Below are positions 5,979-54,557 of a DNA stretch of 64,000 nucleotides, piece by piece. This DNA comes from a bacterium (GTDB lineage Bacteria > SZUA-182 > DTGQ01), in NCBI GenBank assembly GCA_040755755.1, contig JBFLZW010000031.1, positions 64,561 to 128,560 on the forward strand, read 5' to 3'. Every line of letters starts with the position of its first letter. Position 1 is the first letter of the stretch. The position numbers and the translations under genes are program-made. The notes below the pieces were generated by a model. The model was not told the origin of the DNA. It saw only the letters and a program-made list of their open reading frames with translations, and did not search any database.

Positions 5979-6082
5979 ACAAGCCCCACCCTCCATTCTA
6001 CATTTAAGGTCAAGAAGAGCAATAGCTCAACACCTCTGGGTTTGTATCCCACCGAACACCTTGAATGGAGGGTGGGGCTTGT
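5979..6082. repeat. intergenic element with perfect 20-bp inverted termini (ACAAGCCCCACCCTCCATTC ... GAATGGAGGGTGGGGCTTGT) and a 64-nt spacer
   Basis: Found by reading the sequence directly. An additional hairpin (GTCATTCC-N10-GGAATGAC) lies at 5884-5909. Confidence 0.5.
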
Positions 6083-6383
6083 ACCTACCGGACCCCATAT
6101 CCTCCCATGCCCTGTAGCCCCACCGGATACCTGATAAATGAGAGCTCCAATTTGCGTTTGACCGAATAGTATCCATAGCGAACCTGCCGCTCTCTGTGTC
6201 TCTATGGTGTCCTTATGTCTTTGCCTTTGCCTCTGTCTTTGTCTTTCTTGAGTAATTGCTCATTGAAATAGTAATAATAGGGTTGATTTGGCCGAAGAGA
6301 TTTGGTAAGGTAATGTGTAAGCAATTTAAGCTGAAAATGAACATAATTATCATCTTTTTCCGCACTTAAATTGAGTAATTATT

Positions 6384-8375: not shown

Positions 8376-8384
8376 GGAAGGGAA

Positions 8385-11714: not shown

Positions 11715-11748
11715 CGGGGAGAAAAAATGAGAAAGGAGAGAGAGGGCG

Positions 11749-13671
11749 ATGGATATCGGGAGCCTTTTGACTGAGAATGATATTTACCTGTTCAGGGAAG
11801 GGAGCCACTTTCGGCTCTATGATAAGCTCGGCTCTCATCTGGTAACCGTTGACGGAGTCAGCGGAGCGTACTTTGCGGTCTGGGCTCCGAATGCCGAGGG
11901 GGTTACGGTGATGGGAAAATTTAATGGCTGGAACCCGGATTCCCATTCTCTGGCCTTGAGAATGGATGGCTCAGGGATCTGGGAGGGCTTTATTCCCGGT
12001 ATCGCTCATGGTGCTCCGTACAAGTATCATATCAGATCACGCTATCGGCATTACCGGGTCGATAAAGGAGACCCTTATGCCTTCCGCTGGGAGCCTGCGC
12101 CGGAAACAGCCTCGGTGGTCTGGGACCTCAAGTATGCATGGGGAGATGGCGAGTGGATGAAAAACCGCGCCGGGGCCAATGCCTTCAATGCACCCATGTC
12201 TATCTACGAGGTGCATCTTGGATCGTGGAGACGGGTTCCGGAAGAGGACGGGCGGTTTCTTACCTACCGGGAAATGGCTGAAAGCCTGGCTGATTACGTC
12301 GAGAAGATGGGTTTTACCCATGTCGAGTTTCTGCCGGTCATGGAGCATCCCTTCTATGGTTCCTGGGGATATCAGATCGTGGGCTTCTTTGCTCCGAGCA
12401 GCAGGTTCGGCACTCCGCAGGACTTCATGGCGATGGTCGATTACCTCCATCAGCGGGGGATAGGAGTTATCCTTGACTGGGTGCCTTCGCATTTTCCCGA
12501 TAATATCCAGGGGCTGGTCTTCTTTGACGGCACTCACCTGTACGAGCATGCAGACCCACGGAAAGGATTTCATCCCGAATGGAAGAGCTATATCTTTAAC
12601 TATGGCCGCCAGGAAGTCAGGGCATTCCTGATCAGTGCCGCACTCTTCTGGTTTGACAAGTATCATATCGACGGTCTCAGGGTGGATGCCGTAGCCTCCA
12701 TGCTCTACCTGGACTATGCGCGCAAATGGGGTGAATGGATCCCGAACGAATTCGGCGGCAAGGAGAATATCGAGGCCATCAGCTTCATCAAACGGCTGAA
12801 CGAGGCCATATACAGCGCATACCCCGATGTTCAGACCATTGCCGAAGAGTCGACCGCCTGGCCCATGGTTTCCCGTCCGACCTATATCGGCGGTCTGGGA
12901 TTTGGTCTGAAGTGGAATATGGGCTGGATGCACGATACCCTGTCCTACTTTTCCAAGGACGCCGTTTACCGCAAGTACCATCAGGGCCAGCTCACGTTCA
13001 GTATCTGGTACGCCTTCTGGGAAAATTTCGTGCTTCCTCTCTCCCACGATGAGGTGGTATACGGGAAAGGCTCGCTGATCGGGAAAATGCCGGGGGACGA
13101 CTGGCAGAAATTCGCCAACCTGCGGCTGTTATTCGGATATATGTATGGTCATCCGGGCAAGAAGCTTCTGTTCATGGGGGGAGAGTTTGCCCAGTGGCGG
13201 GAGTGGAACCACGATCTCAGCCTTGACTGGCACCTCCTCGAATATTTCCCTCATCAGGGAGTGCAAAAGTGGGTCGCGGACTTAAACCGCATGTATGCCA
13301 CTGAACCGGCCCTTCACGAGCTGGACTTTTCCAGTGAAGGATTCGAATGGGTGGATTTTCACGATGCCGAATCGAGCGTCATCAGCTTCATCAGAAAAGG
13401 GAAAACCACCGGCGACCTGATCATGGCAGTCTGCAATTTCACCCCCGTGCCCCGGGAAAACTACCGGCTGGGAGTGCCGTGGAGCGGCATCTGGAAAGAG
13501 ATCCTGAACAGCGATGCCAGGGTCTATGGCGGAAGCGGCCACGGAAACTTTGGCCAGGTTGAGGCCACACCGCTTCCTGCACACGGAAAAAGCTGCTCCC
13601 TATCCCTGCTCCTGCCTCCCCTGGGCATTATTTTCCTCAAGGGTGAGGAGAGTGAGAAATTTCAGTTGTAA
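11749..13671 (+). CDS. glgB: 1,4-alpha-glucan branching enzyme
   Basis: 640 aa. GH13_9 motifs ([39 protein letters not shown]). Confidence 0.9.
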
Positions 13672-26750: not shown

Positions 26751-26895
26751 ACAAGCCTGTAACAGTCAGATAATTAATTCATAAGGTGCCGGTAAATGTC
26801 AGTAATTACTTTTGGGACTATTCGTCTTATCTATAAAGGTATCACAGCCCGGCCAAAATCTCAAGGCTTGATTTGGAAGTCCCTGGAAAGTCTCA

Positions 26896-42165: not shown

Positions 42166-42750
42166 TGCGTTTCCCTTTCATAATCTTGAAGCTTTCCGAT
42201 TTGTTTTCTCATAAACCCTGACCTGCTTACCACGGGCAAAGCATAATAGCCATCTCTCACCCCCTTTGTGAACTCAGTGCGAACACTCTTCTCGCCGGAA
42301 AAATGAGAAAAACAGATGCATGAAAATAGCTGGAGAAGAAGTCGCTTAATTAAAGAGATTGTTAAAAAAGGCTGGGGAACTGGGGAGAAATAATTATTGT
42401 ATCGTATGAGCCGTTGAATGAATGAAAATATGTGTCTATTATATTGAGACGAATTTTTTTCGATTTCGTTATGGAACGGCCTTTGTTTAATTGAGAGGCT
42501 ATCTGAAAATCTCCCTCCAGATGAAGAACTGTACCTGCCGTCATCGAGAAGCTGGAGAAAAAGGTTAAAAACATCCGGCCTCAATGTCCTTTTTCCATTT
42601 CATCCAGTAAAATAACGCTGTAGGACCTAACAGTTTTAACTTATACTGAAATATGTTAAGGATTAATCTATTAATATATAATTAATCGTGGGCACATCTC
42701 CTTCCAGAATCAAATTGACATTTATGCATAAATGATGCATACTTGTGCAT

Positions 42751-42948
42751 ATGAGGACGACATTAAACATTGATGACAAAATTTTAGAGAAGGCTTCACT
42801 GTTAACAGGTGTAAAGGAAAAGACAGCCTTAGTGCGTCTTGGATTAGAGGCCCTTATAGCTCGTGAAAGCAGTAAGCGACTCGCAAGGCTGGGTGGCTCT
42901 GAAAAGAATCTTCGGCCTATTCCAAGACGAAGGTTTAAAGAATCATAA
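42751..42948 (+). CDS. vapB: VapB-type antitoxin
   Basis: MRTTLNIDDKILEKA...ALVRLGLEAL matches ribbon-helix-helix-type VapB antitoxins. Ends 2 nt before the PIN gene. Confidence 0.55.
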   Translation: MRTTLNIDDKILEKASLLTGVKEKTALVRLGLEALIARESSKRLARLGGSEKNLRPIPRRRFKES

Positions 42949-42950
42949 TC

Positions 42951-43328
42951 ATGGTTATCGTCGATACTTCTCTTTGGGTTACCCACCTGAGAGAAGGCAA
43001 CAACCACCTTGAAGAATTGCTGCTGAATGGAGAAGTACTCTGTCATCCCTTCATCGTCGGTGAATTGGCGTGTGGGAACATCAAAAACAGAGTTGAATTA
43101 CTGACGCTTCTTCAATCACTTGAGATGGCTCCAACTGTCACCTTGGATGAACTATTGTATTTTATTGAGCGAAATAGATTAATGGGCAAAGGGGTCGGTT
43201 TTGTTGATGCACACCTATTAGCCTCAGCCCAATTAGCGGAAGTGCCCTTATGGACTTCTGATAAGAGATTGAAATCATCGGCAATTGACCTTAAAGTCGC
43301 CTATAAAGACGGGGCTGTTATATTCTGA
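42951..43328 (+). CDS. vapC: PIN-domain toxin VapC
   Basis: MVIVDTSLWV...VDAHLLASA...WTSDKRL are the conserved PIN acidic positions. 125 aa. Confidence 0.8.
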   Translation: MVIVDTSLWVTHLREGNNHLEELLLNGEVLCHPFIVGELACGNIKNRVELLTLLQSLEMAPTVTLDELLYFIERNRLMGKGVGFVDAHLLASAQLAEVPLWTSDKRLKSSAIDLKVAYKDGAVIF

Positions 43329-43368
43329 AGGGCGAAATGTAACCCTGTCCCCCTTACCCCCTTCAGCC

Positions 43369-44334
43369 TTAATGTTTCCAGAGCTTCTTCAAAATGGAAA
43401 GCGGGCCTTTGGTGTCTTTATTCTCAGGGGCATCCTTGTGCTGGTGTCCTTCCCCTTTTTGATCGGAGGAAGGGGAACCCGGACGCTCATTGGAGGAGGG
43501 CTTTGGTATTTCAGCCAGGCGGCCGCTGCCCAGAAAGCGAAACAGGGGCCCCAAGGGGCCGAGGGACAGCTCATCGCCGGGATTGAGCGGTGACTGAAGG
43601 TCGATGGGCTGCCGGTTGACCATAATCAATCGTTGTCCCGTGAGGTCCTTGACCCAGTAGCGATCCTGACTGTAGAAGACCTGGACATGCTGACCCTGGA
43701 TACCAGGATGGTCAAGCTGAAAATCGCAGCTTGCCTCTTTTCCCATGGTAACCGGCACCGCTTTGTATGAGCGCAGCGTAGGGCCATACTGGATAATGAG
43801 GGGGACTCTCACGTTGTGCACCACGACTTTGCCTGCTGCCTCGACAGGCTCAGGATGAAGGGGTGGGGGTTCGGGCTGGAGGAAGGGGTGCTCAGGCTCC
43901 AGCCGGGAAGATGAATCCGGTTCACTCTCCGGGGGATGATGCGGCGGTGAAGGCAGGGGGCCGCTTTGCTGCGGAGCCGGGAGAACGCTTTCTTTCCCGG
44001 CTTGGTTTTCCTGAATCTGGGTCAGGAAGCTGACCTTTGGCCCGCCTTCGGCAAAAGACAACACGTCTCCGTTCTTCAGGTACGCCTCTTCAACCACTCT
44101 CTTGCCGTTGACAAAGGTGCCATTGGTGCTGTGGTCTACCAATTTAAAGCGATTTCCGTCTCGGACTATTTCGGCATGGTTGCGGGAAATTATGGTCAGA
44201 TCCGCCGGGAACTTCAAATGACATGACTGGTGGCGGCCAATGGCAATCCTGGCTTCGGAAAACTCCTGAATTTCGCCCTTGAGAGGCCCTTGAATATGAA
44301 CGAGTTGAACGGTAATAACCGGCTGTTGCTTCAT
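43369..44334 (-). CDS. tandem FHA-domain protein with Pro-rich linker
   Basis: Two FHA cores (IGRHQSCHLKF...SRNHAEI...GSTNGTFVNG and MGKEASCDFQL...GQHVQVF...GQRLIMVN) separated by a PPHHPPESEPD linker. Confidence 0.8.
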   Translation of the reverse strand: MKQQPVITVQLVHIQGPLKGEIQEFSEARIAIGRHQSCHLKFPADLTIISRNHAEIVRDGNRFKLVDHSTNGTFVNGKRVVEEAYLKNGDVLSFAEGGPKVSFLTQIQENQAGKESVLPAPQQSGPLPSPPHHPPESEPDSSSRLEPEHPFLQPEPPPLHPEPVEAAGKVVVHNVRVPLIIQYGPTLRSYKAVPVTMGKEASCDFQLDHPGIQGQHVQVFYSQDRYWVKDLTGQRLIMVNRQPIDLQSPLNPGDELSLGPLGPLFRFLGSGRLAEIPKPSSNERPGSPSSDQKGEGHQHKDAPENKDTKGPLSILKKLWKH

Positions 44335-44521
44335 TGGGAATAAAAATTATCTGATGGTAAATGGTTTATCATCCTGTTTGCAGTCCAGAACTCAATTATA
44401 GCCTGAATCTCGCATTTCTTGCAAGAAAATAATTATTTACAACCTGCCATAAGTTTACTAAAATAGGATTGACTTTTAACCTTTCTCATGAGAGGATCTA
44501 TAACCACCAAATTGAAAGGCG

Positions 44522-45250
44522 ATGCCTATGACAGTCTCATTTGGACAATCAGATCCTGGCCTCAGACGCTCGAATAATGAAGATGCTTTCATCATCATAT
44601 CCGAAGCGGACCTTCTGGCAGTGGCCGATGGAATGGGCGGGGCAGCGGCTGGTGAGGTGGCCAGCCGGATATTTATTGAATCCGCCTCGGCACTTTCCGG
44701 CGGTGCGAAGTGTCAATCCGAGCAGGAAGCCCTTGTCAGGGTCCAGGATATCTTCAGATCAGCCAATGAAAAAATTATTAACCATGCCAGGCAGAACCCT
44801 CAGTGCCGGGGAATGGGGTGTACCGCCGAAGTCATTGTCTTCACCAGCCAGGGTTATGTTCTTGGCCATGTAGGAGACAGCCGCACCTATCTGCTGCGAG
44901 CGGGACAACTGAAACGATTGACGCATGATCACTCTGTGGTCCAGGAGCAGATCGACCAGGGCCTCATCACGCCAGAGGATGCCAGAAAACATCCCCTCAA
45001 AAGTGTTATCCTCAGAGCTGTAGGTGTCAACGAACAGTTGGCCCTTGACCTGATACGGGATAAAACCGTTCCCGGCGACCTTTTTCTCCTCTGCTCCGAC
45101 GGTCTGACAGATATGATTGACGATTCCTTCATCAAGGATATCCTTTCCCGTCCCCTGACTCTTTCTCAAAAGGGAACCCAGTTAATCGAGGCTGCCAAAT
45201 CAGCCGGGGGGTATGACAACGTAACGGTAGTTCTCGGTGAAGTAAAGTGA
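44522..45250 (+). CDS. PP2C-family Ser/Thr protein phosphatase
   Basis: RRSNNEDAF...VADGMGGAAAGE...GDSR...CSDGL motifs of PPM phosphatases. Confidence 0.85.
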   Translation: MPMTVSFGQSDPGLRRSNNEDAFIIISEADLLAVADGMGGAAAGEVASRIFIESASALSGGAKCQSEQEALVRVQDIFRSANEKIINHARQNPQCRGMGCTAEVIVFTSQGYVLGHVGDSRTYLLRAGQLKRLTHDHSVVQEQIDQGLITPEDARKHPLKSVILRAVGVNEQLALDLIRDKTVPGDLFLLCSDGLTDMIDDSFIKDILSRPLTLSQKGTQLIEAAKSAGGYDNVTVVLGEVK

Positions 45251-46204
45251 TTGACCATGAGCAAGTTCACTCGGGCGTGGATGGTCCTGGCCGTTGCCGC
45301 TGTCACGGTTTTTCTGCTGTTTGCGTTTGCCGGGGCTGGAAGCGCGGACGTGGAGTTCAGATCGTATCCTTTTCCTCTGCCGGAGGTGGAGGATGTCATT
45401 TCACGATGGCTGCACAGCAACGGCTTTGAGATCGTCCGTGCTTGCCGGGAAGGGGGCCAGGTCCACCTGGGAGCGATGAAAGAAGGCGAGCGCTGGCAGA
45501 TCATGCTCAAGCCCCGCTCTCCCCTGGCCTCGGAGGTCCAGGCCGAATACTTCCGGCAGGGGCAGCCCGATCAGGCGCTCCAGAAAGAACTATGGGCCCA
45601 TCTGCAAAGATATGCCCGGAATCCTGCTGCCGAACAAGAGGATTACGGTGTCCCCTCCCCGGTTTTGGCCCACAGTGAATCGGTGGTCTGCATCAAAGCC
45701 GAGCGGGGAGGAAAACCGATTCAGTTCTCCGGTTTCATTATTGACCGGGAGGGGTTAATATTAGGAACAGCCCATGACCTTGAAGGGATCCAGGAGGTCA
45801 GGGTTATTCTCGATAACGGCCATGAGCTGAACGGACAACTATGCAGGGCCGATCATGACCGGGATTTGGCTCTTATTGCCGTCAAGACCAGGTTCGATGC
45901 CTGCATTTCTCTTTCCCGGGGACGAAACCTCCTGAGCATGGGTGAAAAGGTGTTTTCGATCGGATGTCCCGTCAATCTGCAGGGAACGGTCCATGCCGGT
46001 TTCATCGACGGCCCTCCGAGGAAGGTGAATACTCTGCTCCTGTGGCAGGTGAATATGGAAGTCCTGCCGGGAAGCAGCGGCAGCCCGGTGTTTGATACCC
46101 AGGGAAACGTGGTGGCTGTTGTCAAGGGCAGATACCGCGGCACGGATTCAGTGGGCTTTCTGATCCCAATGGAGACGATCAGAGAATTTATGGGACAAAA
46201 ATAG
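45251..46204 (+). CDS. membrane-anchored trypsin-like (S1) serine protease with N-terminal domain of unknown function
   Basis: N-terminal TM/signal. C-terminal chymotrypsin fold with GTAHDL (His), DLALI (Asp) and GSSGSPVFD (Ser). No PDZ. Starts 1 nt after the PP2C stop. Confidence 0.75.
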   Translation: MTMSKFTRAWMVLAVAAVTVFLLFAFAGAGSADVEFRSYPFPLPEVEDVISRWLHSNGFEIVRACREGGQVHLGAMKEGERWQIMLKPRSPLASEVQAEYFRQGQPDQALQKELWAHLQRYARNPAAEQEDYGVPSPVLAHSESVVCIKAERGGKPIQFSGFIIDREGLILGTAHDLEGIQEVRVILDNGHELNGQLCRADHDRDLALIAVKTRFDACISLSRGRNLLSMGEKVFSIGCPVNLQGTVHAGFIDGPPRKVNTLLLWQVNMEVLPGSSGSPVFDTQGNVVAVVKGRYRGTDSVGFLIPMETIREFMGQK

Positions 46205-46217
46205 GACGGAAGTTAGC

Positions 46218-47450
46218 ATGTTATTACAGTATGGACGGTATCAGATCGAAAATGAGCTTGGCAAGGGAGCTATGGGGGTGGTCTACCGGGCCCATGATCC
46301 CCGGATTGACCGGTCAGTCGCTTTGAAGGTCCTGCGTCCGGACCGGGTCACCAACGAGGATTTCGTCCAGCGGTTCCTCAAGGAGGCTAAAGCGATTGGC
46401 AGGCTTTCGCATCCCAATATCGTTACTGTCTATGACGTCGGGCAGGATCAGGACACGATCTTTATTGCCATGGAATTTCTCGATGGCAAACCTCTTCATA
46501 CGATCTTGCAGGAAGCAAAACCGGATATTGGCACCATCGTCGATCTTGGCATCCAGGTAGCCTGTGCCCTCGATTATGCCCACCAGAAGGGAATCGTTCA
46601 CCGGGATATCAAGCCCGGCAATATTATTGTCCAGCCCGATGGCCGGGTGAAAATAACCGACTTCGGAATTGCCCATATCGAAGATTCCTCGGCCACGCAG
46701 CAGACCAGGGCGGGAGAGATTCTCGGCAGCCCGGCTTATATGTCCCCCGAACAGGTGATGGGCCAGCCGGTGGACGGACGCTCAGATCTGTATTCGCTGG
46801 GCGTTGTCCTCTACGAGCTGTGCGCCGGGAAGCGGCCCTTCCAGGAAGATAACCTGGCCGCTCTTTTCAGGGCCATTACTCAGGATAATCCCCCTGAACT
46901 GTCAGCTCTCGACCCGGCAATCCCCCCCCTGCTTTCGCAGACAATCGTAAAGTGCCTGAGCAAGCAGCCGGAGAAACGCTTTCAGACCGGCCTTGCCCTG
47001 GCCGATGCCCTGAAGACCTGCCTGAAGAAGACAAAAGCCGCCCCGACCGGACAGGATCGGCCAAAGGGCAGGTTCCTGGTGCTCCTGATCGCGGTTTTCC
47101 TGATCAGTATCACGGCGGGGATTTTGGTCTATTTCTTCGGCTCAGCCAGGGATGATCGTCTTCCTCCTCCTTCTCCTCCTCCGTCGGTTACGGAGCAGCA
47201 ACCGCCGCCGACTGGAGAAGCGCCTCCGGTGATTGCTTTTCTCAAGGTCGAAAGTACGCCCGTCGGTGCCCAGATTTTCGTGGATGGAACCCTGCACGGG
47301 AAAACGCCTGCCCGGCTTGAGCTTGCGCCCGGAAAACATGAGGTCCGGCTGACTTTGCCCGCTTATTTTGACTGGGAAGCCCAGGTTCAGTTACCCGAAA
47401 AGGTCGAGACCCCTCTCCTGGTCCGGCTGATGCCGACCGAGGAGGAGTAG
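46218..47450 (+). CDS. Hanks-type Ser/Thr protein kinase with TM segment and extracytoplasmic PEGA domain
   Basis: Kinase motifs GKGAMGVVY, HRDIKPGN, DFG, SPE. TM segment FLVLLIAVFLISITAGILVYFF. C-terminal ESTPVGAQIFVDGTLHGKTPARLELAPGKHEVRL is a PEGA domain. Confidence 0.9.
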   Translation: MLLQYGRYQIENELGKGAMGVVYRAHDPRIDRSVALKVLRPDRVTNEDFVQRFLKEAKAIGRLSHPNIVTVYDVGQDQDTIFIAMEFLDGKPLHTILQEAKPDIGTIVDLGIQVACALDYAHQKGIVHRDIKPGNIIVQPDGRVKITDFGIAHIEDSSATQQTRAGEILGSPAYMSPEQVMGQPVDGRSDLYSLGVVLYELCAGKRPFQEDNLAALFRAITQDNPPELSALDPAIPPLLSQTIVKCLSKQPEKRFQTGLALADALKTCLKKTKAAPTGQDRPKGRFLVLLIAVFLISITAGILVYFFGSARDDRLPPPSPPPSVTEQQPPPTGEAPPVIAFLKVESTPVGAQIFVDGTLHGKTPARLELAPGKHEVRLTLPAYFDWEAQVQLPEKVETPLLVRLMPTEEE

Positions 47451-47483
47451 TGGTCAGTGGTCAGTGATCAGTGGTTAGTGGCT
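47449..47483. repeat. five tandem AGTGGTC-type heptamers (AGTGGTC AGTGGTC AGTGATC AGTGGTT AGTGGCT)
   Basis: Read directly. The first unit overlaps the kinase stop codon. A second array of the same heptamer is at 59121-59176. Confidence 0.6.
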
Positions 47484-47488
47484 GGAAT

Positions 47489-47535
47489 CCAGAAGTCAGG
47501 AGAAAAACAGCCCTTATTCTGACTCCTGACTCCTG
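47489..47535. repeat. GTCAG-repeat hairpin element (CCAGAAGTCAGGAG...CTGACTCCTGACTCCTG)
   Basis: Imperfect 13-bp stem with a 16-20-nt loop. Related copy at 57107-57173. Confidence 0.5.
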
Positions 47536-47561
47536 AATTCTTTAAAAAAAAGGAGTGTCAG

Positions 47562-49556
47562 ATGAAGATTACCCGAAAATGCCGTGCCGTCAGTTTGATC
47601 CTCACCCTTGGTTTTTTCCTCTCGGGAATGGGCGTAAGCTATGGCCAGATCGCACCCGGCCAGTCCGCTCCGCTCTTTTCCCTGAAGGATATCGCCGGAA
47701 AATCCCATGACCTGGCCCAGATGAAAAATCAGCCCATGATTATTCTCTACTTCTTCGATGCAGAATCGAGGCCGAGCCAGGAAGGAATCGTAAGCCTGAA
47801 TCAATTGGCCAGACAATACAAGGGCTATGACCTGACCACCCTGGCCATTACCCTCTCTCCGCGGGCCAAGATCGATCAGTTCAGGAAGCAGACCGACCTA
47901 GGGTTTCCCATCATCCAGGACCAGTCCGGGATCAGCGACCGGTATCAGGCCCGGCAGATACTGCCCACGGTCTGCATTATCGGGCCGGGTCTTCGCGTTC
48001 TCGACCATTTTCAGGGCGGAGGCAAAACCACCGAAGTGATGCTGGTCAGGCTGGCCGAGAGGGAATTACAGAGAAAACAGACCACGCTGGCTAAAGCCAT
48101 CAGCGCCGAGGTGGTAAAAAAGAACCCTCACAATACCAGGGCCAAAACAGTGGCTGGTTATGCAGCCCTCAGGGAGGGGAACCTCAAGCAGGCGCAGGAG
48201 GTTTTCCAGAACCTGGCCAAAGACAGCGGACAGGCAGAGGTACTTGGCAAAGAAGGGCTGGCCGCCGTTCATGTCCAGAAGGGAGAGGCGGCCAGAGCCC
48301 TTGAGCTGGCCAGAGAGATAGAGCACAAAGCTCCTGAAAGATCCTATGTCCATGTCATCAAGGGAGATATTCTCGCCAGTCAGGATAAAAAGCAGGAGGC
48401 CGAGGCGGAATATCAGAAAGCGATAGCCAAGAAGGATGCCGAGCCGTACCAGGAAGCGGTCAGGCATAACCAGCTTGGCCGGTTGTATGCAAGCAGCGGA
48501 CAGTATCAAAAGGCGCGTGAGCTTTACGACCAGGCGGTGGCCATCGATCCTTATTACATCGAGGGGACGACCAACAAGGGGATAACCTACCAGAAAGAAG
48601 GCAATTGGGATAAAGCCCTGGAATCCTTTCAGCAGGCCGTCACCCTTGACAAGGGCGATACCTTTGCGGTTGTCCTGGCCAAAAAAGCCCAGGAGATGCT
48701 GGAGTTCCAGAAAGACAACGAGCGTAAAAAACGGGTTGACCAACTGGTGAAAGACCTGGCCGAGCGGTACCGCAGTCAGGAGAAGTCCAGGCCAAAGGAT
48801 GAAGATACCTGGACCTCCCGGCCCATGATTATCTCCTTTGTCGATTTTCAGGAAAAAGGCGGCCTGGCCGAGCGGGATGGCTTCTCGACCGTGATGACCA
48901 GCCAGTTAAGCGATTCCCTGACCGCCTCGAACCGGGTCCAGGTGGTGGAGCGGGTGCTGATCGAGCGTCTCATGGAGGAGTTGAACCTTGGTTCTTCGGA
49001 TCTGGCTGATCAGGAAACTGCGCTCAAGCTTGGCCGGGTACTGGCCGCCAAACTGATCGGCACCGGATCCCTCTTTTACCTGCCCAACGGGACGCTCCTG
49101 AATCTCAGGCTCATCGACAGCGAAACCTCAGCCATCCCTTTGGTGATCACCCGGCAAATCAGCCCCCAGGCATCTCTGGAAAAAGAGCTTTACGCCCTCA
49201 ACCGGCAGATATTAAGGACAGTCATGGAAAAGTATCCCCTGCACGGGTATCTGGTTGAAGTCACAGGAGATCAGGCCCTGGTTAACCTCGGCTCCCGCCA
49301 GGGAGTGGTTCAGGGGACACGGTTTGAAGTGCTGGAAGAAGGCAAGCCGATCACCTACAAGGGGAAGACGCTCCAGAGCTCACCAAAAATCATCGCCCAG
49401 GCCGAGGTTGTCCGGGTTGAGCCTGACCTGTGCCATATCCGGATCATCAGCCAGGAAAGACCCCTGAAAACCGATGACAAGGTCCAGGAGAGAATCGCGG
49501 AAGCGGTCCTGGGAGAAGGCAGCGAAGAAGGTAGTGGAAGCAGGGATCATGAATAG
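47562..49556 (+). CDS. secreted multidomain protein: Cys-less peroxiredoxin/thioredoxin-like fold + TPR repeats + C-terminal CsgG/LpoB-like domain
   Basis: Signal peptide. AhpC/TSA-like N-terminus (PLFSLKDIAGKSHDLAQMKNQPMIILYFFDAESRPSQEG ... FPIIQD) lacks the catalytic Cys. Central TPR units. The C-terminal region matches the CsgG/LpoB/TolB-N-like pattern (ISFVDFQEKGG...RVQVVERVLIERLMEELNLGSSDLADQETALKLGRVLAAKLIGTGSL). Confidence 0.6.
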   Translation: MKITRKCRAVSLILTLGFFLSGMGVSYGQIAPGQSAPLFSLKDIAGKSHDLAQMKNQPMIILYFFDAESRPSQEGIVSLNQLARQYKGYDLTTLAITLSPRAKIDQFRKQTDLGFPIIQDQSGISDRYQARQILPTVCIIGPGLRVLDHFQGGGKTTEVMLVRLAERELQRKQTTLAKAISAEVVKKNPHNTRAKTVAGYAALREGNLKQAQEVFQNLAKDSGQAEVLGKEGLAAVHVQKGEAARALELAREIEHKAPERSYVHVIKGDILASQDKKQEAEAEYQKAIAKKDAEPYQEAVRHNQLGRLYASSGQYQKARELYDQAVAIDPYYIEGTTNKGITYQKEGNWDKALESFQQAVTLDKGDTFAVVLAKKAQEMLEFQKDNERKKRVDQLVKDLAERYRSQEKSRPKDEDTWTSRPMIISFVDFQEKGGLAERDGFSTVMTSQLSDSLTASNRVQVVERVLIERLMEELNLGSSDLADQETALKLGRVLAAKLIGTGSLFYLPNGTLLNLRLIDSETSAIPLVITRQISPQASLEKELYALNRQILRTVMEKYPLHGYLVEVTGDQALVNLGSRQGVVQGTRFEVLEEGKPITYKGKTLQSSPKIIAQAEVVRVEPDLCHIRIISQERPLKTDDKVQERIAEAVLGEGSEEGSGSRDHE

Positions 49557-50082
49557 AAGAGCATGGCTGACAGGTCTTATCCTGGTTGGATTTTTTTGCG
49601 CCTCCTGCACGTTGCGTCAATCCCTGCCCCTTGGGCAGGGCACAGCGATGGAAAAGGATACTGCAATTGAAAAGGGTGCTGCGGTAGCTGTCTGGGATTT
49701 CGATAACTTGAGCCCATCTGCCGAAGGCCAGCCGCCTTCACTGGGAGAGCTTCTCTCCGCTCAGGTTATGGAATCGCTCCAGTCTCGCGGGGATGTAACG
49801 GTCATCGAGCGGCAGCGGCTGCACCTGGCCCTTGAGGAGCTTAAATTGGGATCGACCTCACTGGCGGATGAGGCCACACGGTTAAAGCTCGGCCATCTGG
49901 TGGGAGCCCGGCTGATGGTTTTTGGAGCCTACCAGGCGATCGCCGGCACCATGCGCCTCGACCTGCGGCTGGTCGAAGTGGAAACCGGCAAGGTGCGTAA
50001 TGCTGTCAAAGGAACGGCTTCGAGCGGGGATATGGCCGAATGGCTGAAGACCGCCAGGGAAGCCGCGGCAGGGCTGCTGTAG
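49549..50082 (+). CDS. CsgG/LpoB-like lipoprotein (paralog of the C-terminal domain of the preceding gene)
   Basis: Lipobox ILVGFFCASC. AVWDFDNLS...DVTVIERQRLHLALEELKLGSTSLADEATRLKLGHLVGARLMVFGAY parallels the upstream domain. The ATG overlaps the upstream gene by 8 nt. Confidence 0.6.
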   Translation: MNRRAWLTGLILVGFFCASCTLRQSLPLGQGTAMEKDTAIEKGAAVAVWDFDNLSPSAEGQPPSLGELLSAQVMESLQSRGDVTVIERQRLHLALEELKLGSTSLADEATRLKLGHLVGARLMVFGAYQAIAGTMRLDLRLVEVETGKVRNAVKGTASSGDMAEWLKTAREAAAGLL

Positions 50083-50107: not shown

Positions 50108-50401
50108 TCAGGGATGAGAAGTTATTGCAATGATGGTAATTTGACCTGCATCAGGACCATAATACCAAAAGACCCTATATGCCGCAGGAGTGGATTGTTC
50201 AGCATAAGCTTCAAAGACTTTTTCTTTTTCGGGTCCTTTTAAGCTGGTGAATTCATGGGTTTCAAGACTTTTATGTCTTGGATTTTCAGCTAATAAATGG
50301 ACAGTCCTGGTTACTGCCTTGTACCTTTTTTCGAGTCCCTTGTCAGTTTTAAGCCTCTCTAATTGCTTTTTTGCCTGATCAGTAAGGAAGATTTCAAACA
50401 A
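50108..50401 (-). CDS. RelE/ParE-superfamily type II toxin (YoeB/Txe-like)
   Basis: 97 aa. The C-terminus YRVFWYYGPDAGQITIIAITSHP is typical of RelE-fold toxins. Low GC. 11-nt gap to the upstream small ORF. Confidence 0.55.
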   Translation of the reverse strand: MFEIFLTDQAKKQLERLKTDKGLEKRYKAVTRTVHLLAENPRHKSLETHEFTSLKGPEKEKVFEAYAEQSTPAAYRVFWYYGPDAGQITIIAITSHP

Positions 50402-50412
50402 AACTGGCTATC

Positions 50413-50694
50413 CTAAAATTCATCAAGATTAAGTTTCGATATCTTGCCCTCGGATGCATCCTTTAAGCCGTCCATAACACTTTCAAGGGCTTCTTTATTT
50501 TGAAAAAGCCAAACCTCTGAAGCTGGAATTTCTGCTATAGGTTGTAAGAGAATCTCTCCCCGGTTATTTTTATATAGTCTGACTCTTTTATAACCCTTCA
50601 AAAGATCACCCAGAGTAATTCGTGTTCTGTCGTCAATTGTTTTAGTATCAACCTCTTGAAATTCATCATTAATCTGCAGGGTATTATTTTTCAT
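50413..50694 (-). CDS. putative cognate antitoxin
   Basis: 93-aa ORF immediately upstream of the toxin on the same strand. Start taken at MKNNTLQIN. No confident fold assignment. Confidence 0.4.
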   Translation of the reverse strand: MKNNTLQINDEFQEVDTKTIDDRTRITLGDLLKGYKRVRLYKNNRGEILLQPIAEIPASEVWLFQNKEALESVMDGLKDASEGKISKLNLDEF

Positions 50695-50851
50695 AGTATC
50701 ACCTCCTGAACAGAATATACTATAATTCCCATATTGGGTCAATGGGCAATTCTATTCCTCCAGCAATTCTAATTATGAACTTTTATGGACAATTTAACCT
50801 CACATCTTTCGGGATTGGATAGAGGTTTATAGCGGTTCCCGGTTGAGTGGA

Positions 50852-51223
50852 CTACCTGATAGTAGTATAACCAGATAGAATAGAATGGCACTGAGAAGCT
50901 GTCTGAAAAATACCAAGGCTTGATTGTCTGATTTTATTCACTACCGGAGAGAAGAAGGTCTCAATCCGAAATCGTTTCCTGTACCAGTTGCAGGCATCTT
51001 GTGTCGATTCAACATTGGTGACCAGAGAGATGGGCTCTTTGTAGTCCTTCTCCCACCAGAGGATAGCATGAACAGGACCATAGGCTTGGTTGGTGAAAAA
51101 GACACCTGGCAGACTCACAGGCTTTTGTCCCTGGGGGACAAAGATCTTGCCCAGAGGAGAGCTTTTTGTCTCCCTTAAAGAGCACACTGCTTTTGCCCGG
51201 GCGACAGGCATACTGCCAGCCAT
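50852..51223 (-). pseudogene. C-terminal fragment of an IS4-like DDE transposase
   Basis: Contains the YRKRFRIETFFSPVVNK region, which matches the IS4-family Y-x2-R-x2-IE-x2-F..K C-terminal motif. No N-terminal or DD regions. Its last ~35 bp are repeated at 53818-53852. Confidence 0.5.
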
Positions 51224-51282
51224 AGCTTTGTAAGAAATTATTTTACGTTATTCTGGTTTATTTCAGAGACGAGGCTTCACCT

Positions 51283-51690
51283 TTAAGGAACTAAATAAGG
51301 GGACTCAGGTCGTGGCCTGAGTTTTCCTTCCTTGCAGTCAACGATCAGGTCGAGTTCCTCCAAAATGGTCTGGCCGAGCAGACCTTCGCTCCCCGGAGGA
51401 CCGACCACACAATTAACCGGCGTGATTCTGTTTTCAACCCTGACCATAGCCACTCCAGCCACTTCTCTTTCCTCTTTCCGTTCATCCGCGTAGGTGACGA
51501 TGACCTTATCCAGCCTTTTCAGGCCGAGTTGCTCCACCAGGTCCTGGGGCAGGACGAGCATTGTTGAGCCGCTATCGACCAGCACCCTGACCCTTTCCCT
51601 GCGGATCTCCTCTATTTTCCTGAGATTGTGCTCATATAATACCCTATCGTCGTAATTCTCAATCTCAAGCTCAACGATGACTTCACCCAT
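51283..51690 (-). CDS. retropepsin-like (clan AA) aspartic protease, bacterial single-domain type
   Basis: 135 aa with RVLVDSGSTMLVLP (D-S/T-G catalytic triad in the retropepsin context) and a downstream GLLGQTILEEL flap-like region. Confidence 0.55.
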   Translation of the reverse strand: MGEVIVELEIENYDDRVLYEHNLRKIEEIRRERVRVLVDSGSTMLVLPQDLVEQLGLKRLDKVIVTYADERKEEREVAGVAMVRVENRITPVNCVVGPPGSEGLLGQTILEELDLIVDCKEGKLRPRPESPYLVP

Positions 51691-51853
51691 GTTCTATCCA
51701 CTCCTTTCAGTATCCGGTTTTGCTGCCCCCTGAGAGCAAATATAGCGAATAACCATGAGTATTGTCAATGAATTATAATGTTTTTCACGACAAGGGATCA
51801 GGCAGAAATTTATCGTAACAATGCATCCAATCAAGGAAAGAGCAAAAAAGAGC

Positions 51854-52612
51854 ATGCTGGCTATCGAAAACCTGAGTGTTCGGCTTTTTAGCCGAACTAT
51901 CCTGAAAGATGTTAATCTTCATATTCCTCCGGGCGAAGTTCATGCCCTGTTCGGCCCCAATGGATCAGGGAAAACAACGCTCCTGATGACTATCATGGGC
52001 TTTCCTGAGTATGAGGTGATTTCGGGCCGGATTATTCTCAAGGGAGAGGATATTACGAACCTTCCAGTTTATGAAAGGGCTCAGGCAGGAATCGGCATCT
52101 CGTTTCAGCGGCCTCCAACCATCAAGGGAATAAAGACGCAGCAGATGCTCAAGATCTGCAATCGCAGCCAGCAGGACTTTAGCCCCTTTATCGAGGAGCT
52201 GAATTTTCAGGATCTTCTGGCCCGTGATGTCAATCAGGGATTTTCAGGGGGAGAAATCAAAAAATCCGAGATGCTGCAGCTCCTGGTCCAGCGCCCCCTG
52301 ATGGCCCTTCTGGATGAGCCGGAATCGGGGGTGGACCTTGAAAACATCGCTCTCATCGGTGGGGCTATCAATCAGTTGCTTCACCGGAACTGGCCGGGGG
52401 AAGAAACAACCGAATGCCGGCGCAAAGTGCGCGAAGAGCGCCGTATTGCCGGGCTGATCATTACCCATACCGGCTACATTCTCGACTATGTGGAAGCGGA
52501 CCGGGGGCATGTGATGATGGACGGCACGATTGCCTGCCACGGAAATCCCCGGGAAATACTGCGCTGCATCAAAGAGGTAGGATATGAGGAGTGCGTGCGA
52601 TGCCTGATCTGA
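51854..52612 (+). CDS. sufC: Fe-S cluster assembly ATPase SufC
   Basis: Walker A GPNGSGKTT, signature FSGGEIKKSE, D-loop LDEPESGVD. An alternative start at 51821 is possible. Confidence 0.85.
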   Translation: MLAIENLSVRLFSRTILKDVNLHIPPGEVHALFGPNGSGKTTLLMTIMGFPEYEVISGRIILKGEDITNLPVYERAQAGIGISFQRPPTIKGIKTQQMLKICNRSQQDFSPFIEELNFQDLLARDVNQGFSGGEIKKSEMLQLLVQRPLMALLDEPESGVDLENIALIGGAINQLLHRNWPGEETTECRRKVREERRIAGLIITHTGYILDYVEADRGHVMMDGTIACHGNPREILRCIKEVGYEECVRCLI

Positions 52613-53817
52613 GAAAAGAGAGGGCGCAGGCTGCCCTGCACAAACAGGCCCTGTACGGCCCGGATATCGACTTGAGGCAGTTTTCCCTGACAGCTCCTGA
52701 AGAGCCGTATCAGAAAGACCTTCGGCAGCTCCCGAAGGAGTTTTCCCGGCAGGTTCTGTCCGCGGGCATTGAAACCGGGGAAAAGGGCCGGTCAGGGACG
52801 TATCTCCAGAAAAACCACTCGGTGCTCCACTGCCAGATCCATCAGGAAGGGGTCGAGATTCTGAACATCGACGATGCCCTGGCAAGATATGACTGGCTTG
52901 GAGACTACTGGTGGAAGATGGTGCCCGTGGACCAGGATAAATATACCGCCTGGGCGTATCTTCACCCGCATCACGGATACTTCATCCGGGCACTGCCGGA
53001 AGCCAAAACCACCTTCCCGCTTCAGGCCTGCCTGTATATCGAGCAGGACAACCTGGTGCAGAACGTACACAATATCATCATTGCTGAAGAGGGGTCGGAA
53101 CTGGATATCATTACCGGCTGTGCCGCCCATTCAGGAATGAAACGGGGGCTGCATGTGGGAGTATCGGAGTTTTACGTCAAAAAAGGAGCCAGGCTTACCT
53201 TTACCATGATCCACAACTGGGCCGAGCAGATGGATGTCAGGCCCCGATCAGCCGCAGCCGTCGGGCCTTCGGGTATTTTTATCTCCAACTACGTTTCCAT
53301 GAAGCCGATCCGGTCGTTGCAGATGTATCCGGCCACCTGGCTGCAGGGGAAAGATGCCCTGGCCCGGTATCATAACATCCTGGTGGCTACCCCTGGCTCT
53401 GAGCTGGATGTGGGCTCCACTGTTACCCTGGAGGCACCAGGCACCCGGGCTGAAGTGGTGAGCCGGGCTATTTCAGCCGGAGGGAAAATATGGGCCAGGG
53501 GACGACTGGTCGGGAAAGCGGAAGATATCAAAGCCCATCTCGAATGCCGCGGCCTGATTCTGGAAGAGGGAGGAACGATTCAGGCCATTCCGGAGCTGGA
53601 AGGCCATCTGCCGGGAATAGACCTTTCTCACGAGGCTGCCGTAGGGAAAATCGCCCAGGAAGAGATCAATTACCTGATGGCCAGGGGGCTTCCCGAATCG
53701 GAAGCCATTGCCGCCATTGTCCGGGGCTTCCTGACCGTGGATATTGCGGGCCTGCCAGGTGAGCTGCAAACGGAATTGAACCGGGTGATAGAGGAGAGCG
53801 AGAAGACGCTTCTGTGA
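52591..53817 (+). CDS. sufB: Fe-S cluster assembly scaffold SufB/SufD-family protein (minimal SufBC system)
   Basis: 408 aa with beta-helix SufB/D core. 22-nt overlap with sufC. Confidence 0.8.
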   Translation: MRAMPDLRKERAQAALHKQALYGPDIDLRQFSLTAPEEPYQKDLRQLPKEFSRQVLSAGIETGEKGRSGTYLQKNHSVLHCQIHQEGVEILNIDDALARYDWLGDYWWKMVPVDQDKYTAWAYLHPHHGYFIRALPEAKTTFPLQACLYIEQDNLVQNVHNIIIAEEGSELDIITGCAAHSGMKRGLHVGVSEFYVKKGARLTFTMIHNWAEQMDVRPRSAAAVGPSGIFISNYVSMKPIRSLQMYPATWLQGKDALARYHNILVATPGSELDVGSTVTLEAPGTRAEVVSRAISAGGKIWARGRLVGKAEDIKAHLECRGLILEEGGTIQAIPELEGHLPGIDLSHEAAVGKIAQEEINYLMARGLPESEAIAAIVRGFLTVDIAGLPGELQTELNRVIEESEKTLL

Positions 53818-53897
53818 GAGGCTGTCTGAAAAATACCAGGGCTTGATGATTGTGATAATCTAAAATTCCCCCATTTTAGGGGTTTGTGACAACGCAA
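53818..53897 (-). pseudogene. second short remnant of the same IS4-like transposase C-terminus
   Basis: GAGAGGCTGTCTGAAAAATACCAGGGCTTGATGATTG duplicates 50895-50926 (2 mismatches plus a 3-bp indel). Both encode ...GIFQTAS... Confidence 0.4.
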
Positions 53898-54049
53898 AAT
53901 TCCCCCACCCCTGACTGAAGTTTCCGGTATTTATATGGGCAGAAAAAAACTAAAGACCATGATACCGGAGGCAGGAAGATGATAGGGATGAATAAGTATG
54001 AATACATATTCCCCGTGTTAACAGCTTTGAGGAGTTAAACGAGTATCTA

Positions 54050-54388
54050 TTGGGGCAATGTCTGTCTCATGATGACCATAAAGTGGAGGGGAAGGAAGGA
54101 TGTGTTGAGGAGCTTTTTGAGAAGGAGAAATCCCAAAACATTACCATGTTATACAATGATATTTCCTTAACTGGAGATATGCTCGTAAGATCTGTTAATT
54201 GGAAAAATTACCCTTTTCCGGTTCCGGTAAAAATCATAATTCAAATAATGCCATCAGAGCATCGTGATCTTTTACAATTAGCAGATAGGCTTGGAATACC
54301 AAAACGTGATTTTCACAAAGTGATTAATCAATGGAGTACGGAGCCTCTATATCAATTCATCAGCCCAGTAGGCCAGTTTAATTTTTAA
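54050..54388 (+). CDS. hypothetical protein (low-GC orphan)
   Basis: 112-aa ORF, N-terminus MGQCLSHDD..., possible HTH (DLLQLADRLGIPKRDFHKVINQW). Followed by an intrinsic terminator. No family recognised. Confidence 0.3.
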   Translation: MGQCLSHDDHKVEGKEGCVEELFEKEKSQNITMLYNDISLTGDMLVRSVNWKNYPFPVPVKIIIQIMPSEHRDLLQLADRLGIPKRDFHKVINQWSTEPLYQFISPVGQFNF

Positions 54389-54396
54389 TGATAAGC

Positions 54397-54427
54397 GTCA
54401 CCAATTTTAAATTTTTGGTGACTTTTT
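54397..54427 (+). terminator. rho-independent terminator (GTCACCAA-N10-TTGGTGAC + TTTTT)
   Basis: Perfect 8-bp stem with a T-run, 9 nt after the stop of the 54050-54388 ORF. Confidence 0.5.
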
Positions 54428-54485
54428 GGTGACTTAAACACAAAAGGGTTACCGACTCTAATCAGTAACCCCTTGAGTTTACTGA

Positions 54486-54557
54486 AGCCGGCGATGGGAT
54501 TCGAACCCGCGGCCTGCTGATTACGAATCAGCTGCTCTACCCCTGAGCTACGCCGGC
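54486..54557 (-). tRNA. tRNA-Thr (anticodon CGU)
   Basis: Cloverleaf folded by hand: GCCGGCG acceptor stem, GCTC/GAGC D-stem, GCTGA/TCAGC anticodon stem, loop TTCGTAA (anticodon CGT), TTCGAAT T-loop. One C-A mismatch in the T-stem. No encoded CCA. Confidence 0.75.

Follow-up and report, generated by a model that had tools for sequence, protein, structure and literature searches.

Remnants of two insertion sequence families and a short direct repeat around sufCB beside a tRNA-Thr gene

How did a retropepsin-like protease gene and the sufCB genes come to lie between two look-alike sequences, next to a tRNA gene? A preliminary description of the window (the whole 64-kb stretch of DNA analysed) had seen on both sides same-orientation remnants of one IS4-like element. 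Close to the tRNA-Thr gene, this was taken as a sign of repeated insertion and deletion or of a decayed composite element, the sufCB genes being either captured or simply flanked. The analysis outlined below indicates that the segment is probably a patchwork of independent insertions and deletions rather than a composite element, and that what is seen at its edges is ordinary IS decay in a decayed junk zone beside a tRNA gene.

Two remnants from different insertion sequence families

The left remnant is a real piece of an IS4-family transposase gene. It lies on the minus strand within 50948-51245, contains the motif YRKRFRIETFF and is recognized by the family HMM (E = 5e-25), scoring E = 1.8e-4 against NF033591, for which its relatives reach 3e-32. 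Of the 382 HMM positions, 232-292 are represented in the main fragment (50948-51130, minus strand; ...QAYGPV...YRKRFRIETFFS) and 195-225 in a second, frameshifted one (51153-51245, minus strand; GWQYACR; E = 0.0024). Transposase homology stops at 50948 (...IETFFS), where a ~270-nt internal deletion has joined the gene straight to a stub of the right terminal inverted repeat (IR) at 50936-50948 on the minus strand, which reads ATTCACTACCGGA on the plus strand from outside to inside and has its tip at ~50936. In 80 full-length relatives the element terminates in the IR TTCACTACCGGACAC, with a family consensus (A/T)TTCACTACCGGACACTTTT derived from about 60 full-length relatives, and the stub, which is unique in the window, matches this consensus at 13 of 13 positions (0.01 matches expected by chance). 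Everything N-terminal of the second fragment is deleted, as is the left IR, for which there is no second match in the window. Intact relatives (Chlorohelix) display 7-bp target-site duplications, whereas here the left end is gone. Of the YREK signature, Y-(2)-R-(3)-E-(6)-K, the first three residues are present (YRKRFRIE), while the K and everything downstream have been deleted. Frameshifted and devoid of this K, of its N-terminal half and of its left IR, the remnant is dead.

The transposase C-terminal fragment originally placed at 50852-51223 (an ORF on the minus strand, described as ~370 bp) is genuine, but IS-derived over only ~300 nt (50936-51245, frameshifted). The deposited 'hypothetical protein' AB1611_10795 (MEW6380077.1) is, on sequence evidence, a chimeric pseudo-ORF in which an IS4 fragment is combined with flanking DNA, and the main value of the present analysis lies in such annotation correction.

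The right remnant belongs to another family. The sequence at 53818-53897 had been taken for a second IS4 fragment, which could not be upheld: with filters off, no other IS4 HMM match was found in the window at E < 10-100, and an IS21 left end begins at 53848. This left end (53848-54008, plus strand) consists of a tip, (T)GATTGTGATAATC, two terminal repeats, L1 (53850-53873) and L2 (53884-53907), a GGAGG Shine-Dalgarno sequence and an istA start codon (ATG at 53979), with the first 10 istA codons kept (MIGMNKYEYI). Such an L1/L2 organization of IS21 terminal repeats has been described (PMC10122671). Three IS21 elements from metagenomes have left ends that align with this region (blastn E = 7e-14 for L116 and 9e-12 for L115), and in the alignment of the four left ends homology begins at 53848, with unrelated left flanks that have nothing in common beyond the tip. 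The tip falls at 53847/8, with a TG at 53847-8; since L115 has a C rather than a T at the expected position of the 5'-TG, its placement here is good to +/-1-3 nt. The tip sequence of the IS21-like element is TGATTGTGATAATCTAAAATTCCCCCA.

After a ~740-nt deletion, an internal istA fragment follows (54008-54136, plus strand), which corresponds to IstA residues ~245-290. Its phmmer matches among 1.84e9 proteins (E = 1e-5 to 6e-4) fit the IS21 transposase model NF033546, and 54008-54133 matches the istA interiors of L115 and L116 at about 1e-5. Both istB and the right terminal inverted repeat (TIR) are absent: the DNA after 54136 is a fragment of an M78-family gene, and the window contains no further motif of the L1/L2 type. 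A blastn search of the remnant region against plasmids returned noise only.

A short direct repeat next to both tips

The resemblance of the two sides is nonetheless real. What had been noticed as a near-identical stretch of ~35 bp in the same orientation is a 33-nt direct repeat, U, whose two copies, U1 (50892-50924, plus strand; TGAGAAGCTGTCTGAAAAATACCAAGGCTTGAT) and U2 (53815-53847, plus strand), are identical at 31 of 33 positions, with a longest exact common run of 18 nt and a blastn E-value of 2e-9 within the window. These are the only two full copies in the 64 kb, and none was found in 100 dinucleotide shuffles. U1 may run on to 50935, up to the IS4 tip, while the last base(s) of U2 adjoin the IS21 tip. 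As stated in the preliminary description, the second copy lies at the sufB stop, whose TGA (53815-53817) makes up its first three bases. A third, partial copy (42492-42509, plus strand; TGAGAGGCTATCTGAAAA) is identical to nt 1-18 of U2 at 17 of 18 positions (E = 0.007; no match in 30 shuffles); it has the same left boundary as U1 and U2 and adjoins on its right a ClpB-like pseudogene fragment beside vapBC. There are thus at least three copies of U on one strand in 64 kb, with a common left boundary (TGAGAR...) and right ends after 18, 33 and 44 nt at three different junctions (the ClpB pseudogene, the IS21 tip and the IS4 tip, respectively). The left flanks of U1 and U2 show no significant similarity to each other, nor do their right flanks. 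The copies begin with 5'-TG, and two TGTCTGAWWWWAT motifs occur in them at a distance of 25 nt. The start sequence of U is TGAGARGCTRTCTGAAAA...

The shared stretch had been regarded as IS4 sequence. It is flanking DNA: U is outside the IS4 remnant because the terminal IR of the element separates the transposase piece from the repeat. One half of what the preliminary description had itself named as speaking against its reading was found: the ~35-bp repeat belongs to another repeat family, which is neither IS4 nor IS21. No significant similarity was seen between U and IS4 loci, and its alignment with IS21 terminal repeats was no better than those of shuffled sequences. Two ways of making U part of one of the elements were considered and rejected. 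An IS4 terminal IR had been suggested by an ungapped 13/24 match to the Chlorohelix IR, but the relatives' consensus puts the IR at 50936-50948, and a third, outermost IS21 terminal repeat is ruled out by an alignment at shuffle level and by four left ends that differ beyond the tip.

Elsewhere, exact-pattern scans of GTDB genomes, JGI metagenomes and IMG/VR gave no match in any of the three, and no Rfam family was found. U forms no palindrome or stem-loop (its folding energy is -0.6 to -0.9 kcal/mol, and most shuffled sequences fold better), and the attC core sites GTTRRRY and RYYYAAC are absent from both strands of this sequence without secondary structure. U appears to be neither IS4 nor IS21 DNA but a dispersed sequence, short and without a palindrome. 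Most likely it represents what is left of the end of an unrecognized repeat or mobile element, lying in neutral DNA where ISs accumulate. At 18-44 nt, it is a small loose end and not a discovery.

sufCB, the tRNA-Thr island and the history of the segment

The retropepsin-like gene, sufC, sufB and tRNA-Thr(CGT) are as originally described. The protease gene (clan AA aspartic protease; 51283-51690, minus strand) appears intact and has native-like GC. The sufCB module (51738-53817, plus strand) comprises an upstream region conserved from 51738, sufC (51821-52612) and sufB (52591-53817), in the arrangement of a SufBC-type minimal Fe-S assembly operon, i.e. a sufC ABC ATPase gene adjacent to a gene with the sufB/D fold. 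SufC matches TIGR01978 (E = 5e-56), and SufB matches TIGR01980 (4e-53), NF052511 SmsB (8e-50) and SUFBD_core (8e-39), all the NCBIfam scores being below equivalog cut-offs.

The module is the only block common to the window and its relatives L001 (JBFMGO01) and L002 (JAILZY01), and its neighbours differ in each of these three closest genomes, which supports the earlier suggestion that native-looking sufCB genes were simply flanked. The C-terminus of SufB and the position of its stop are conserved, the common block extends to a point at most ~9 nt from the stop codon, and no direct repeats were found around sufCB in L001 or L002. By this comparison, sufCB is an intact resident operon, and only in this lineage does it stand beside the tRNA-Thr island. 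DNA outside both repeats is low in GC, while GC between them is native.

To the left of U1 lies a low-GC two-gene cassette (50108-50742, minus strand), which had been called a RelE-type toxin-antitoxin pair. The cassette is there, with a putative antitoxin gene next to that of a ParE/RelE-like protein, but there is little strength in the toxin call, as the ParE_toxin match (E = 0.007) does not reach the curated cut-off. To the right of the IS21 remnant, the last 83 codons of an M78-family gene (54137-54388, plus strand; phmmer E = 6e-19 against P0008), whose full-length relatives have an N-terminal Peptidase_M78 (ImmA/IrrE) domain, precede tRNA-Thr(CGT) (54486-54557, minus strand), the 3' end of which faces the decayed island. 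The 112-aa 'orphan' ORF in this region is a chimeric pseudo-ORF, an IS21 istA fragment fused to the tail of the M78-family gene. A decayed IstA C-terminus over its whole length is ruled out, since phmmer places residues 46-128 in the M78-family gene; a word-indexed search and a Pfam scan with the 128-aa chimera returned nothing.

In the metagenomic loci L118 and L119 (Ga0566185_0003009 and Ga0566184_0000087), collinearity with the window extends from 54133 across tRNA-Thr, pyrE, ptsI and EIID (75-83% nt identity). A longer M78 fragment lies there directly beside tRNA-Thr-pyrE-ptsI, and the 2.5 kb to the left contain neither IS21 nor U nor sufCB. The notion of a plasticity zone at tRNA-Thr, with repeated insertion and deletion, is strengthened by this decayed remnant of an integrative element, which sits at the same tRNA gene without IS21 or sufCB. 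No integrase is present within the window, although L118 has recombinase fragments at the equivalent locus, and no direct repeat of the tRNA-Thr 3' end (22 nt) was found.

Two independent insertions left the remnants in this patchwork. An element of the IS4 family, whose transposase gene runs on the minus strand, inserted 11 nt to the right of U1 and later lost its left two-thirds and ~270 nt between codon ~292 and the right tip, leaving 50936-51245. The other element, of the IS21 family and on the plus strand, has a left tip that coincides with the end of U2. It lost ~740 nt within istA and, in a second deletion, all of the sequence beyond istA codon ~290, istB and the right end included; this second deletion reached into the M78-peptidase-family gene of an old integrated element by tRNA-Thr. 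If the patchwork reading is right, an intact IS21-like left end would not begin with TGAGARGCTGTCTG... A rearrangement would also have brought sufCB next to the island, and the most likely origin of the operon's present placement is a recombination or deletion associated with IS21. An essential Fe-S operon sitting in a rearrangement-prone junkyard, with a position that varies among close relatives, is of modest interest for genome plasticity in this uncultured lineage.

Other histories can be written for the same features. U might be the left end of an unrecognized transposon, M, two direct copies of which bracketed protease-sufCB as a composite or cargo and carried the Fe-S genes to the island at tRNA-Thr, before IS4 and IS21 hit M and most of it was lost. 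The three copies of U with an identical left boundary but unrelated left flanks, their 5'-TG start, the two TGTCTGAWWWWAT motifs, and a sufCB block that ends at most ~9 nt from the stop and has varying neighbours in three related genomes all fit this idea. It is nevertheless unlikely: no body, transposase or right end of M was found, no repeats flank sufCB in L001 or L002, the GC of protease-sufCB is native, the third U copy is unconnected with sufCB, and M would have had to insert exactly before a native stop codon.

Conversely, U might be native DNA lying just 3' of sufB, U1 having been left by a duplication or by a Campbell-type recombination that moved the IS4 remnant, protease and sufCB into a U-bearing site in the island. 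In accord with this scenario, the first 9 nt of U2 (TGAGAGGCT) resemble the native sequence right after the sufB stop of L001 (TGAGAGACT), and given this likeness the start of U2 could be sufB flank rather than repeat. Such recombination would be expected to leave direct repeats on both sides of the segment it inserts, GC is low on both outer sides and native between the repeats, and excision of 50925-53847 would join the toxin-antitoxin cassette, U and the IS21 and M78 remnants into one low-GC island. Difficult to reconcile with it are the third copy at 42492, far from sufB with the same left edge, the dissimilarity of U past these 9 nt to the DNA downstream of sufB in L001 and L002 (p > 0.3), the island of L118, which has no U, and the left edge of U1, which would coincide with the stop codon only by chance. 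This history, too, seems improbable.

A bolder proposal is that a small mobile element, as yet undescribed, has U as its terminus or recombination site and carries the essential two-gene sufCB operon from place to place as a cassette of its own. If true, it would explain three contexts in three close genomes and a conserved block that ends at the stop codon, but we regard it as distinctly improbable.

The reading with which the locus was first presented, in which a single IS4-like element gave rise to both pieces, orientated alike, the 33 nt belong to IS4, and the whole is a decayed composite or the result of repeated IS4 insertion at one site, is very hard to maintain. A genuine IS4 transposase fragment does adjoin U1, and one frame of the 33-mer reads ...GIFQTAS..., which by eye is loosely like DQKSRGFHLHKSH. 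However, a terminal IR stands between this fragment and the repeat, the HMM does not find the C-terminal 90 residues at either U copy (filters off, E < 100) or C-terminal transposase homology elsewhere in the window, and the DNA to the right of U2 is an IS21 left end. With an IS4-family remnant on the minus strand, an IS21-family remnant on the plus strand and the 33 nt outside both, two remnants of one element in a decayed composite are refuted. When the tips of two ISs have a flank in common, they can pass for a duplicated IS, and it is the terminal repeats of relatives that resolve such cases. Finally, chance similarity or an assembly artefact can practically be dismissed, with no match in 100 shuffles, a blastn E-value of 2e-9 and a longest exact run below usual assembler k-mers, a collapsed or chimeric join being unlikely because the copies differ at two positions.

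Comparison with known systems

The segment resembles a composite transposon in that protease-sufCB has an IS-derived sequence and a copy of a direct repeat on either side. It differs in that the remnants are not two copies of one IS but come from different families (IS4 on the left, IS21 on the right), and in that the right tip of IS4 and the left tip of IS21, which are non-equivalent ends, both point away from the block, with the repeat outside both.

Taken singly, each remnant can be compared with its family. The left one shares with IS4 elements of the NCBIfam transpos_IS4_2 type the DDE transposase core ...QAYGPV...YxYRKRFRIETFFS and a family-type IR (TTCACTACCGG...), which in relatives lies ~0-30 nt from the transposase stop, and the database proteins nearest to its transposase share ~50-65% identity with it. 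An intact relative from Candidatus Chlorohelix allophototropha plasmids measures 1218 bp, whereas here ~300 of ~1200-1300 nt remain. The left-end architecture of the right one matches that of Geobacillus/Metabacillus elements. IS5376 of Geobacillus (L1/L2, R1/R2, istA, istB) likewise has two direct repeats ~34 nt apart and a 5'-TG tip, the repeat core being AAAATTCCCCCA here and AAAATGAGCCAC in Geobacillus. A Shine-Dalgarno sequence and istA start ~130 nt from the tip, an IstA N-terminus of the form MI.M..YEYI and an IstA piece equivalent to ~247-287 of NF033546 complete the likeness to IS21, but istB and the right TIR are missing and istA has suffered two deletions.

The DNA beyond the IS21 remnant recalls tRNA-adjacent integrative elements that combine Xre, ImmA (M78) and serine recombinases, with the M78 fragment adjoining the 3' side of tRNA-Thr here as well. 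In L118, serine-recombinase fragments lie next to the M78 fragment, and in L120, an intact relative, Xre, M78 and a large serine recombinase end at tRNA-Asn. The window differs by keeping only the last 83 M78 codons, with neither a recombinase nor a repeat of the tRNA 3' end.

As for U, the nearest parallel may be found in REP elements, which serve as landing sites for ISs (PMC1525189). U differs from these by not being palindromic, by having only three copies in 64 kb and by the lack of any RAYT or REP family found with it. Like them, it is short and intergenic, one copy comes right after a stop codon, and the tips of ISs of two families lie in it or at most 11 nt away. Rather than a claim of membership, the analogy is offered as a lead.

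Two insertion sequence families beside sufCB

The sufCB genes are flanked by remnants of two different insertion sequence (IS) families whose tips can be located, and a short direct repeat, U, lies outside both. On the left, the ORF at 50852-51223 (-), deposited with the MAG as 'hypothetical protein AB1611_10795' (MEW6380077.1), does contain the IS4-family transposase piece reported in the preliminary description, since the closest proteins in the databases have PF01609 and score E = 3e-32 against NF033591 (transpos_IS4_2). A homologue-built HMM covers only residues ~31-92 of this ORF, ending ...RFRIETFFS (nt 50948), and also matches a frameshifted upstream piece (GWQYACR). A full-length HMM of 382 positions, built from 78 relatives, gave the same outcome, with (-) fragments at 50948-51130 (positions 232-292, E = 5e-25) and, frameshifted, at 51153-51245 (positions 195-225, E = 0.0024); the last ~90 transposase residues, at the C-terminus, match nowhere in the window, even with all HMM filters off. 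The comparison set for the ends comprised three intact Candidatus Chlorohelix plasmid copies (1218 bp, 7-bp target duplications, right end 18 nt past the transposase stop) and 80 full-length metagenomic relatives, in which the inverted repeat (IR) consensus is (A/T)TTCACTACCGGACACTTTT and the right IR lies 0-30 nt past the stop codon. The sole match to this consensus in 64 kb (0.01 expected by chance), at 50936-50948, reads ATTCACTACCGGA on the + strand and is joined directly to the reverse complement of ...IETFFS. Judging from this junction and the HMM coverage, the remnant consists of a right tip at 50936 with its IR stub, an internal deletion of ~270 nt and transposase codons ~195-292, the remainder being deleted. 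The left copy of the repeat, U1 (50892-50924), ends 11 nt outside this tip and is thus flanking DNA rather than IS4 DNA, contrary to its earlier inclusion in the transposase fragment. The IETFFSDQKSRGF motif marks an abundant IS4 subgroup, with relatives encoded in more than 540 metagenome stretches and very little variation in its terminal repeat, TTCACTACCGGACAC.

On the right, what had been taken for a second IS4-like fragment (53818-53897) is the second copy, U2 (53815-53847), followed by the left end of an IS21-family element with two 24-nt direct repeats (TTGTGAYAAYNYAAAATTCCCCCA). The left ends of metagenomic IS21 elements (L115-L117) and of Geobacillus and Metabacillus plasmid elements share one architecture: tip, L1, short spacer, L2, Shine-Dalgarno and istA start (M-I-x-M-x-x-Y-E-Y-I). 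Positions 53848-54008 align to L116 1-161 (E = 7e-14) and L115 2135-2296 (E = 9e-12), and 54008-54133 to the istA interiors of both, ~740 nt further in. In the alignment of left ends, homology starts at 53848 (±1), leftward of which the four sequences are unrelated. This starting point and the architecture, which agrees with the organisation described for IS21 (L1/L2 and R1/R2 repeats, terminal CA; PMC10122671), place the end of U2 exactly at the left tip of the IS21 wreck; U2 is therefore flanking DNA as well. A composite of two like IS4 remnants is thus refuted.

The 'low-GC orphan' reading frame at 54002-54385 is not one gene either. In an exhaustive phmmer search against 1.84e9 proteins, residues 2-45 matched short IstA fragments (E = 1e-5 to 6e-4), which in turn match the IS21 family transposase model NF033546 (E = 1e-10 to 2e-4), in agreement with weak direct matches and a profile search. 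The remainder, residues 46-128, corresponds to the C-terminal ends of P0008 (E = 6e-19), P0010, P0015 and P0016, a group whose full-length members have an N-terminal Peptidase_M78 (ImmA/IrrE) domain. The frame is a chimera of an IstA piece and the tail of an M78-family gene.

Copies of the repeat and the low-GC islets

The near-identical, same-orientation stretch noticed earlier is a 33-nt direct repeat (31/33 identical), and U2 indeed opens with the TGA stop of sufB. The 27-nt core of U occurs at only two window sites at up to three mismatches (0 expected; 100 shuffles). The similarity of the flanks of U1 and U2, left and right, does not rise above shuffled controls. A third, partial copy on the same strand (42492-42509; TGAGAGGCTATCTGAAAA) is 17/18 identical to U2 nt 1-18 (E = 0.007); its pattern is found at three window sites only within three mismatches and in none of 30 shuffles. 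To its right lies a frameshifted, minus-strand ClpB-like pseudogene fragment (~42510-42640; AAA_2 E = 0.008), reading VILLDEMEKGH, a frameshift, then PDVFNLFLQLLDDGR...GGR, whose homology appears by eye to end at the U junction. All three copies share their left boundary, and they are truncated on the right at 18 nt (third copy, at the ClpB-like fragment), 33 nt (U2, at the IS21 tip) and 44 nt (U1, at the IS4 tip); the left edge of U is thus fixed, and its right end is cut at a different point each time. A possible fourth copy (right half) at 26856-26874 (AAAATCTCAAGGCTTGATT; 17/19 identical to U1 nt 15-33), intergenic between two minus-strand genes, is borderline, with a roughly estimated chance expectation of ~0.02.

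The third copy stands at the left edge of a second low-GC islet (42200-43330), which holds the ClpB-like fragment and vapBC: an intact-looking vapB (42745-42948; E = 5e-16) followed by vapC (PIN; 42951-43328). The stretch between the two islets (43369-50082) is of native GC and holds a cluster of signalling and envelope genes, which encode an FHA-domain protein, a PP2C phosphatase, a trypsin-like protease, a Ser/Thr kinase with a PEGA domain, an AhpC/TSA-TPR lipoprotein and a CsgG-like lipoprotein. In the toxin-antitoxin (TA) cassette left of U1, the toxin of the supposed RelE-type pair is a weak call (ParE_toxin E = 0.007; RelE_StbE E = 0.13). The best sigma-70-like promoter of the cassette (TTGACC-17-TATATT; 50714-50742) falls within the 109-aa ORF listed as the antitoxin, and the real antitoxin start is probably a downstream ATG (MKNNTLQ...).

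sufCB and the tRNA-Thr side in related genomes

The remaining gene calls were correct, namely the retropepsin-like protease (Asp_protease_2, E = 5e-11), sufC, the SufB/D-fold gene and tRNA-Thr(CGT). The two closest GTDB genomes, L001 and L002 (sufB 83-84% aa and ~79% nt identity), share with the window only the block ~51738-53823, within which sufB keeps its C-terminus and the position of its stop; the operon is therefore intact. Each of the three genomes has its own flanking genes: a retropepsin-like gene (-) on the left and the IS21 wreck on the right in the window, RtcA (-) and treS-mak, glgB in L002, and a MEDS-PAS histidine kinase (-) and unknown genes in L001. Distant Desulfobacterota-type sufCB loci have no flanking genes in common with the window. 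The arrangement is thus lineage-specific, which supports the reading of a tRNA-associated plasticity zone. The window GlgE-pathway cluster at 6384-13671 (glgE, treS-maltokinase fusion, glgB) is 85-87% identical (aa) to the L002 copies; in L002 (6888-12406), sufCB lies directly upstream of treS, at the place of the window glgE, which means that one genome or the other has been rearranged there. Upstream of sufC, the motif TTTTTCACGACAAGGRAT is invariant (window 51775-51795, L002 ~4420-4440, L001 ~7000-7020) amid diverged intergenic DNA; it may be an operator or promoter element of sufCB.

Two metagenome contigs identical to each other, L118 and L119, keep the order of the window from 54133 onward (75-83% nt identity): M78-family tail, tRNA-Thr(CGT), phosphoribosyltransferase (pyrE-like), ptsI, HPr and EIID. 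Ahead of their M78-family fragment, which has 208 codons, stand serine-recombinase fragments and a DUF4747 gene. Over the 2.5 kb to the left, L118/L119 have neither IS21 nor U, nor do they carry the TA cassette or sufCB. In a further locus, L120, an intact module (3579-6606) comprises Xre (HTH_3), Peptidase_M78 and a large serine recombinase whose gene ends at, and overlaps, a tRNA-Asn(GTT) gene; it is a likely model of what decayed at the window tRNA-Thr. On these comparisons, the right-hand low-GC stretch would be all that survives of an old integrative element beside tRNA-Thr, and the join at ~54135 a putative deletion from inside istA into that element.

L118 and L119 are JGI contigs from different samples, 100% identical across 6.8 kb. 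Both stop ~2.2 kb to the left of the M78-family fragment, at points no more than 14 nt apart, which suggests a repeat boundary there; in their first 2800 nt (1-2800), the serine-recombinase (Resolvase) fragments and DUF4747 gene lie beside tRNA-Thr. The L120 module has a primase (Toprim/DUF3987) and an HTH_17 gene on its upstream side. In the window, two hairpins at 54397-54474 separate the chimeric ORF from tRNA-Thr; one of them, GTCACCAA...TTGGTGAC with a T-run, is terminator-like on the + strand, and a 14-bp stem with a T-run on the minus strand, directly past tRNA-Thr, is likely the tRNA terminator.

Assembly of the locus and nature of the repeat

IS4 and IS21 probably inserted in independent events, each adjoining a copy of U, with several deletions following, and sufCB was most likely brought beside the tRNA-Thr island by IS21-linked recombination or deletion. 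The most economical reading takes U for a short dispersed repeat, probably a stub left from the end of an unrecognised element, situated in neutral DNA into which other ISs have inserted. It matches no Rfam family, resembles neither IS21 terminal repeats nor any of the IS4 loci, shares with L001/L002 DNA only a 9-nt positional resemblance directly after the L001 sufB stop, and has no copies found in public collections. That U, present on either side of sufCB, is the end of a transposon that carried these genes is improbable; sufCB has no flanking repeats in L001 or L002. An origin of U1 as by-product of a duplication or Campbell-type event has a similarly low probability.

The elements are all of known kinds, and the finding is an ordinary one apart from this small repeat. 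Although a palindrome was looked for in U and none was found, so that its likeness to REPs is one of analogy only, short extragenic repeats serving as IS landing sites are documented for REPs (PMC1525189).
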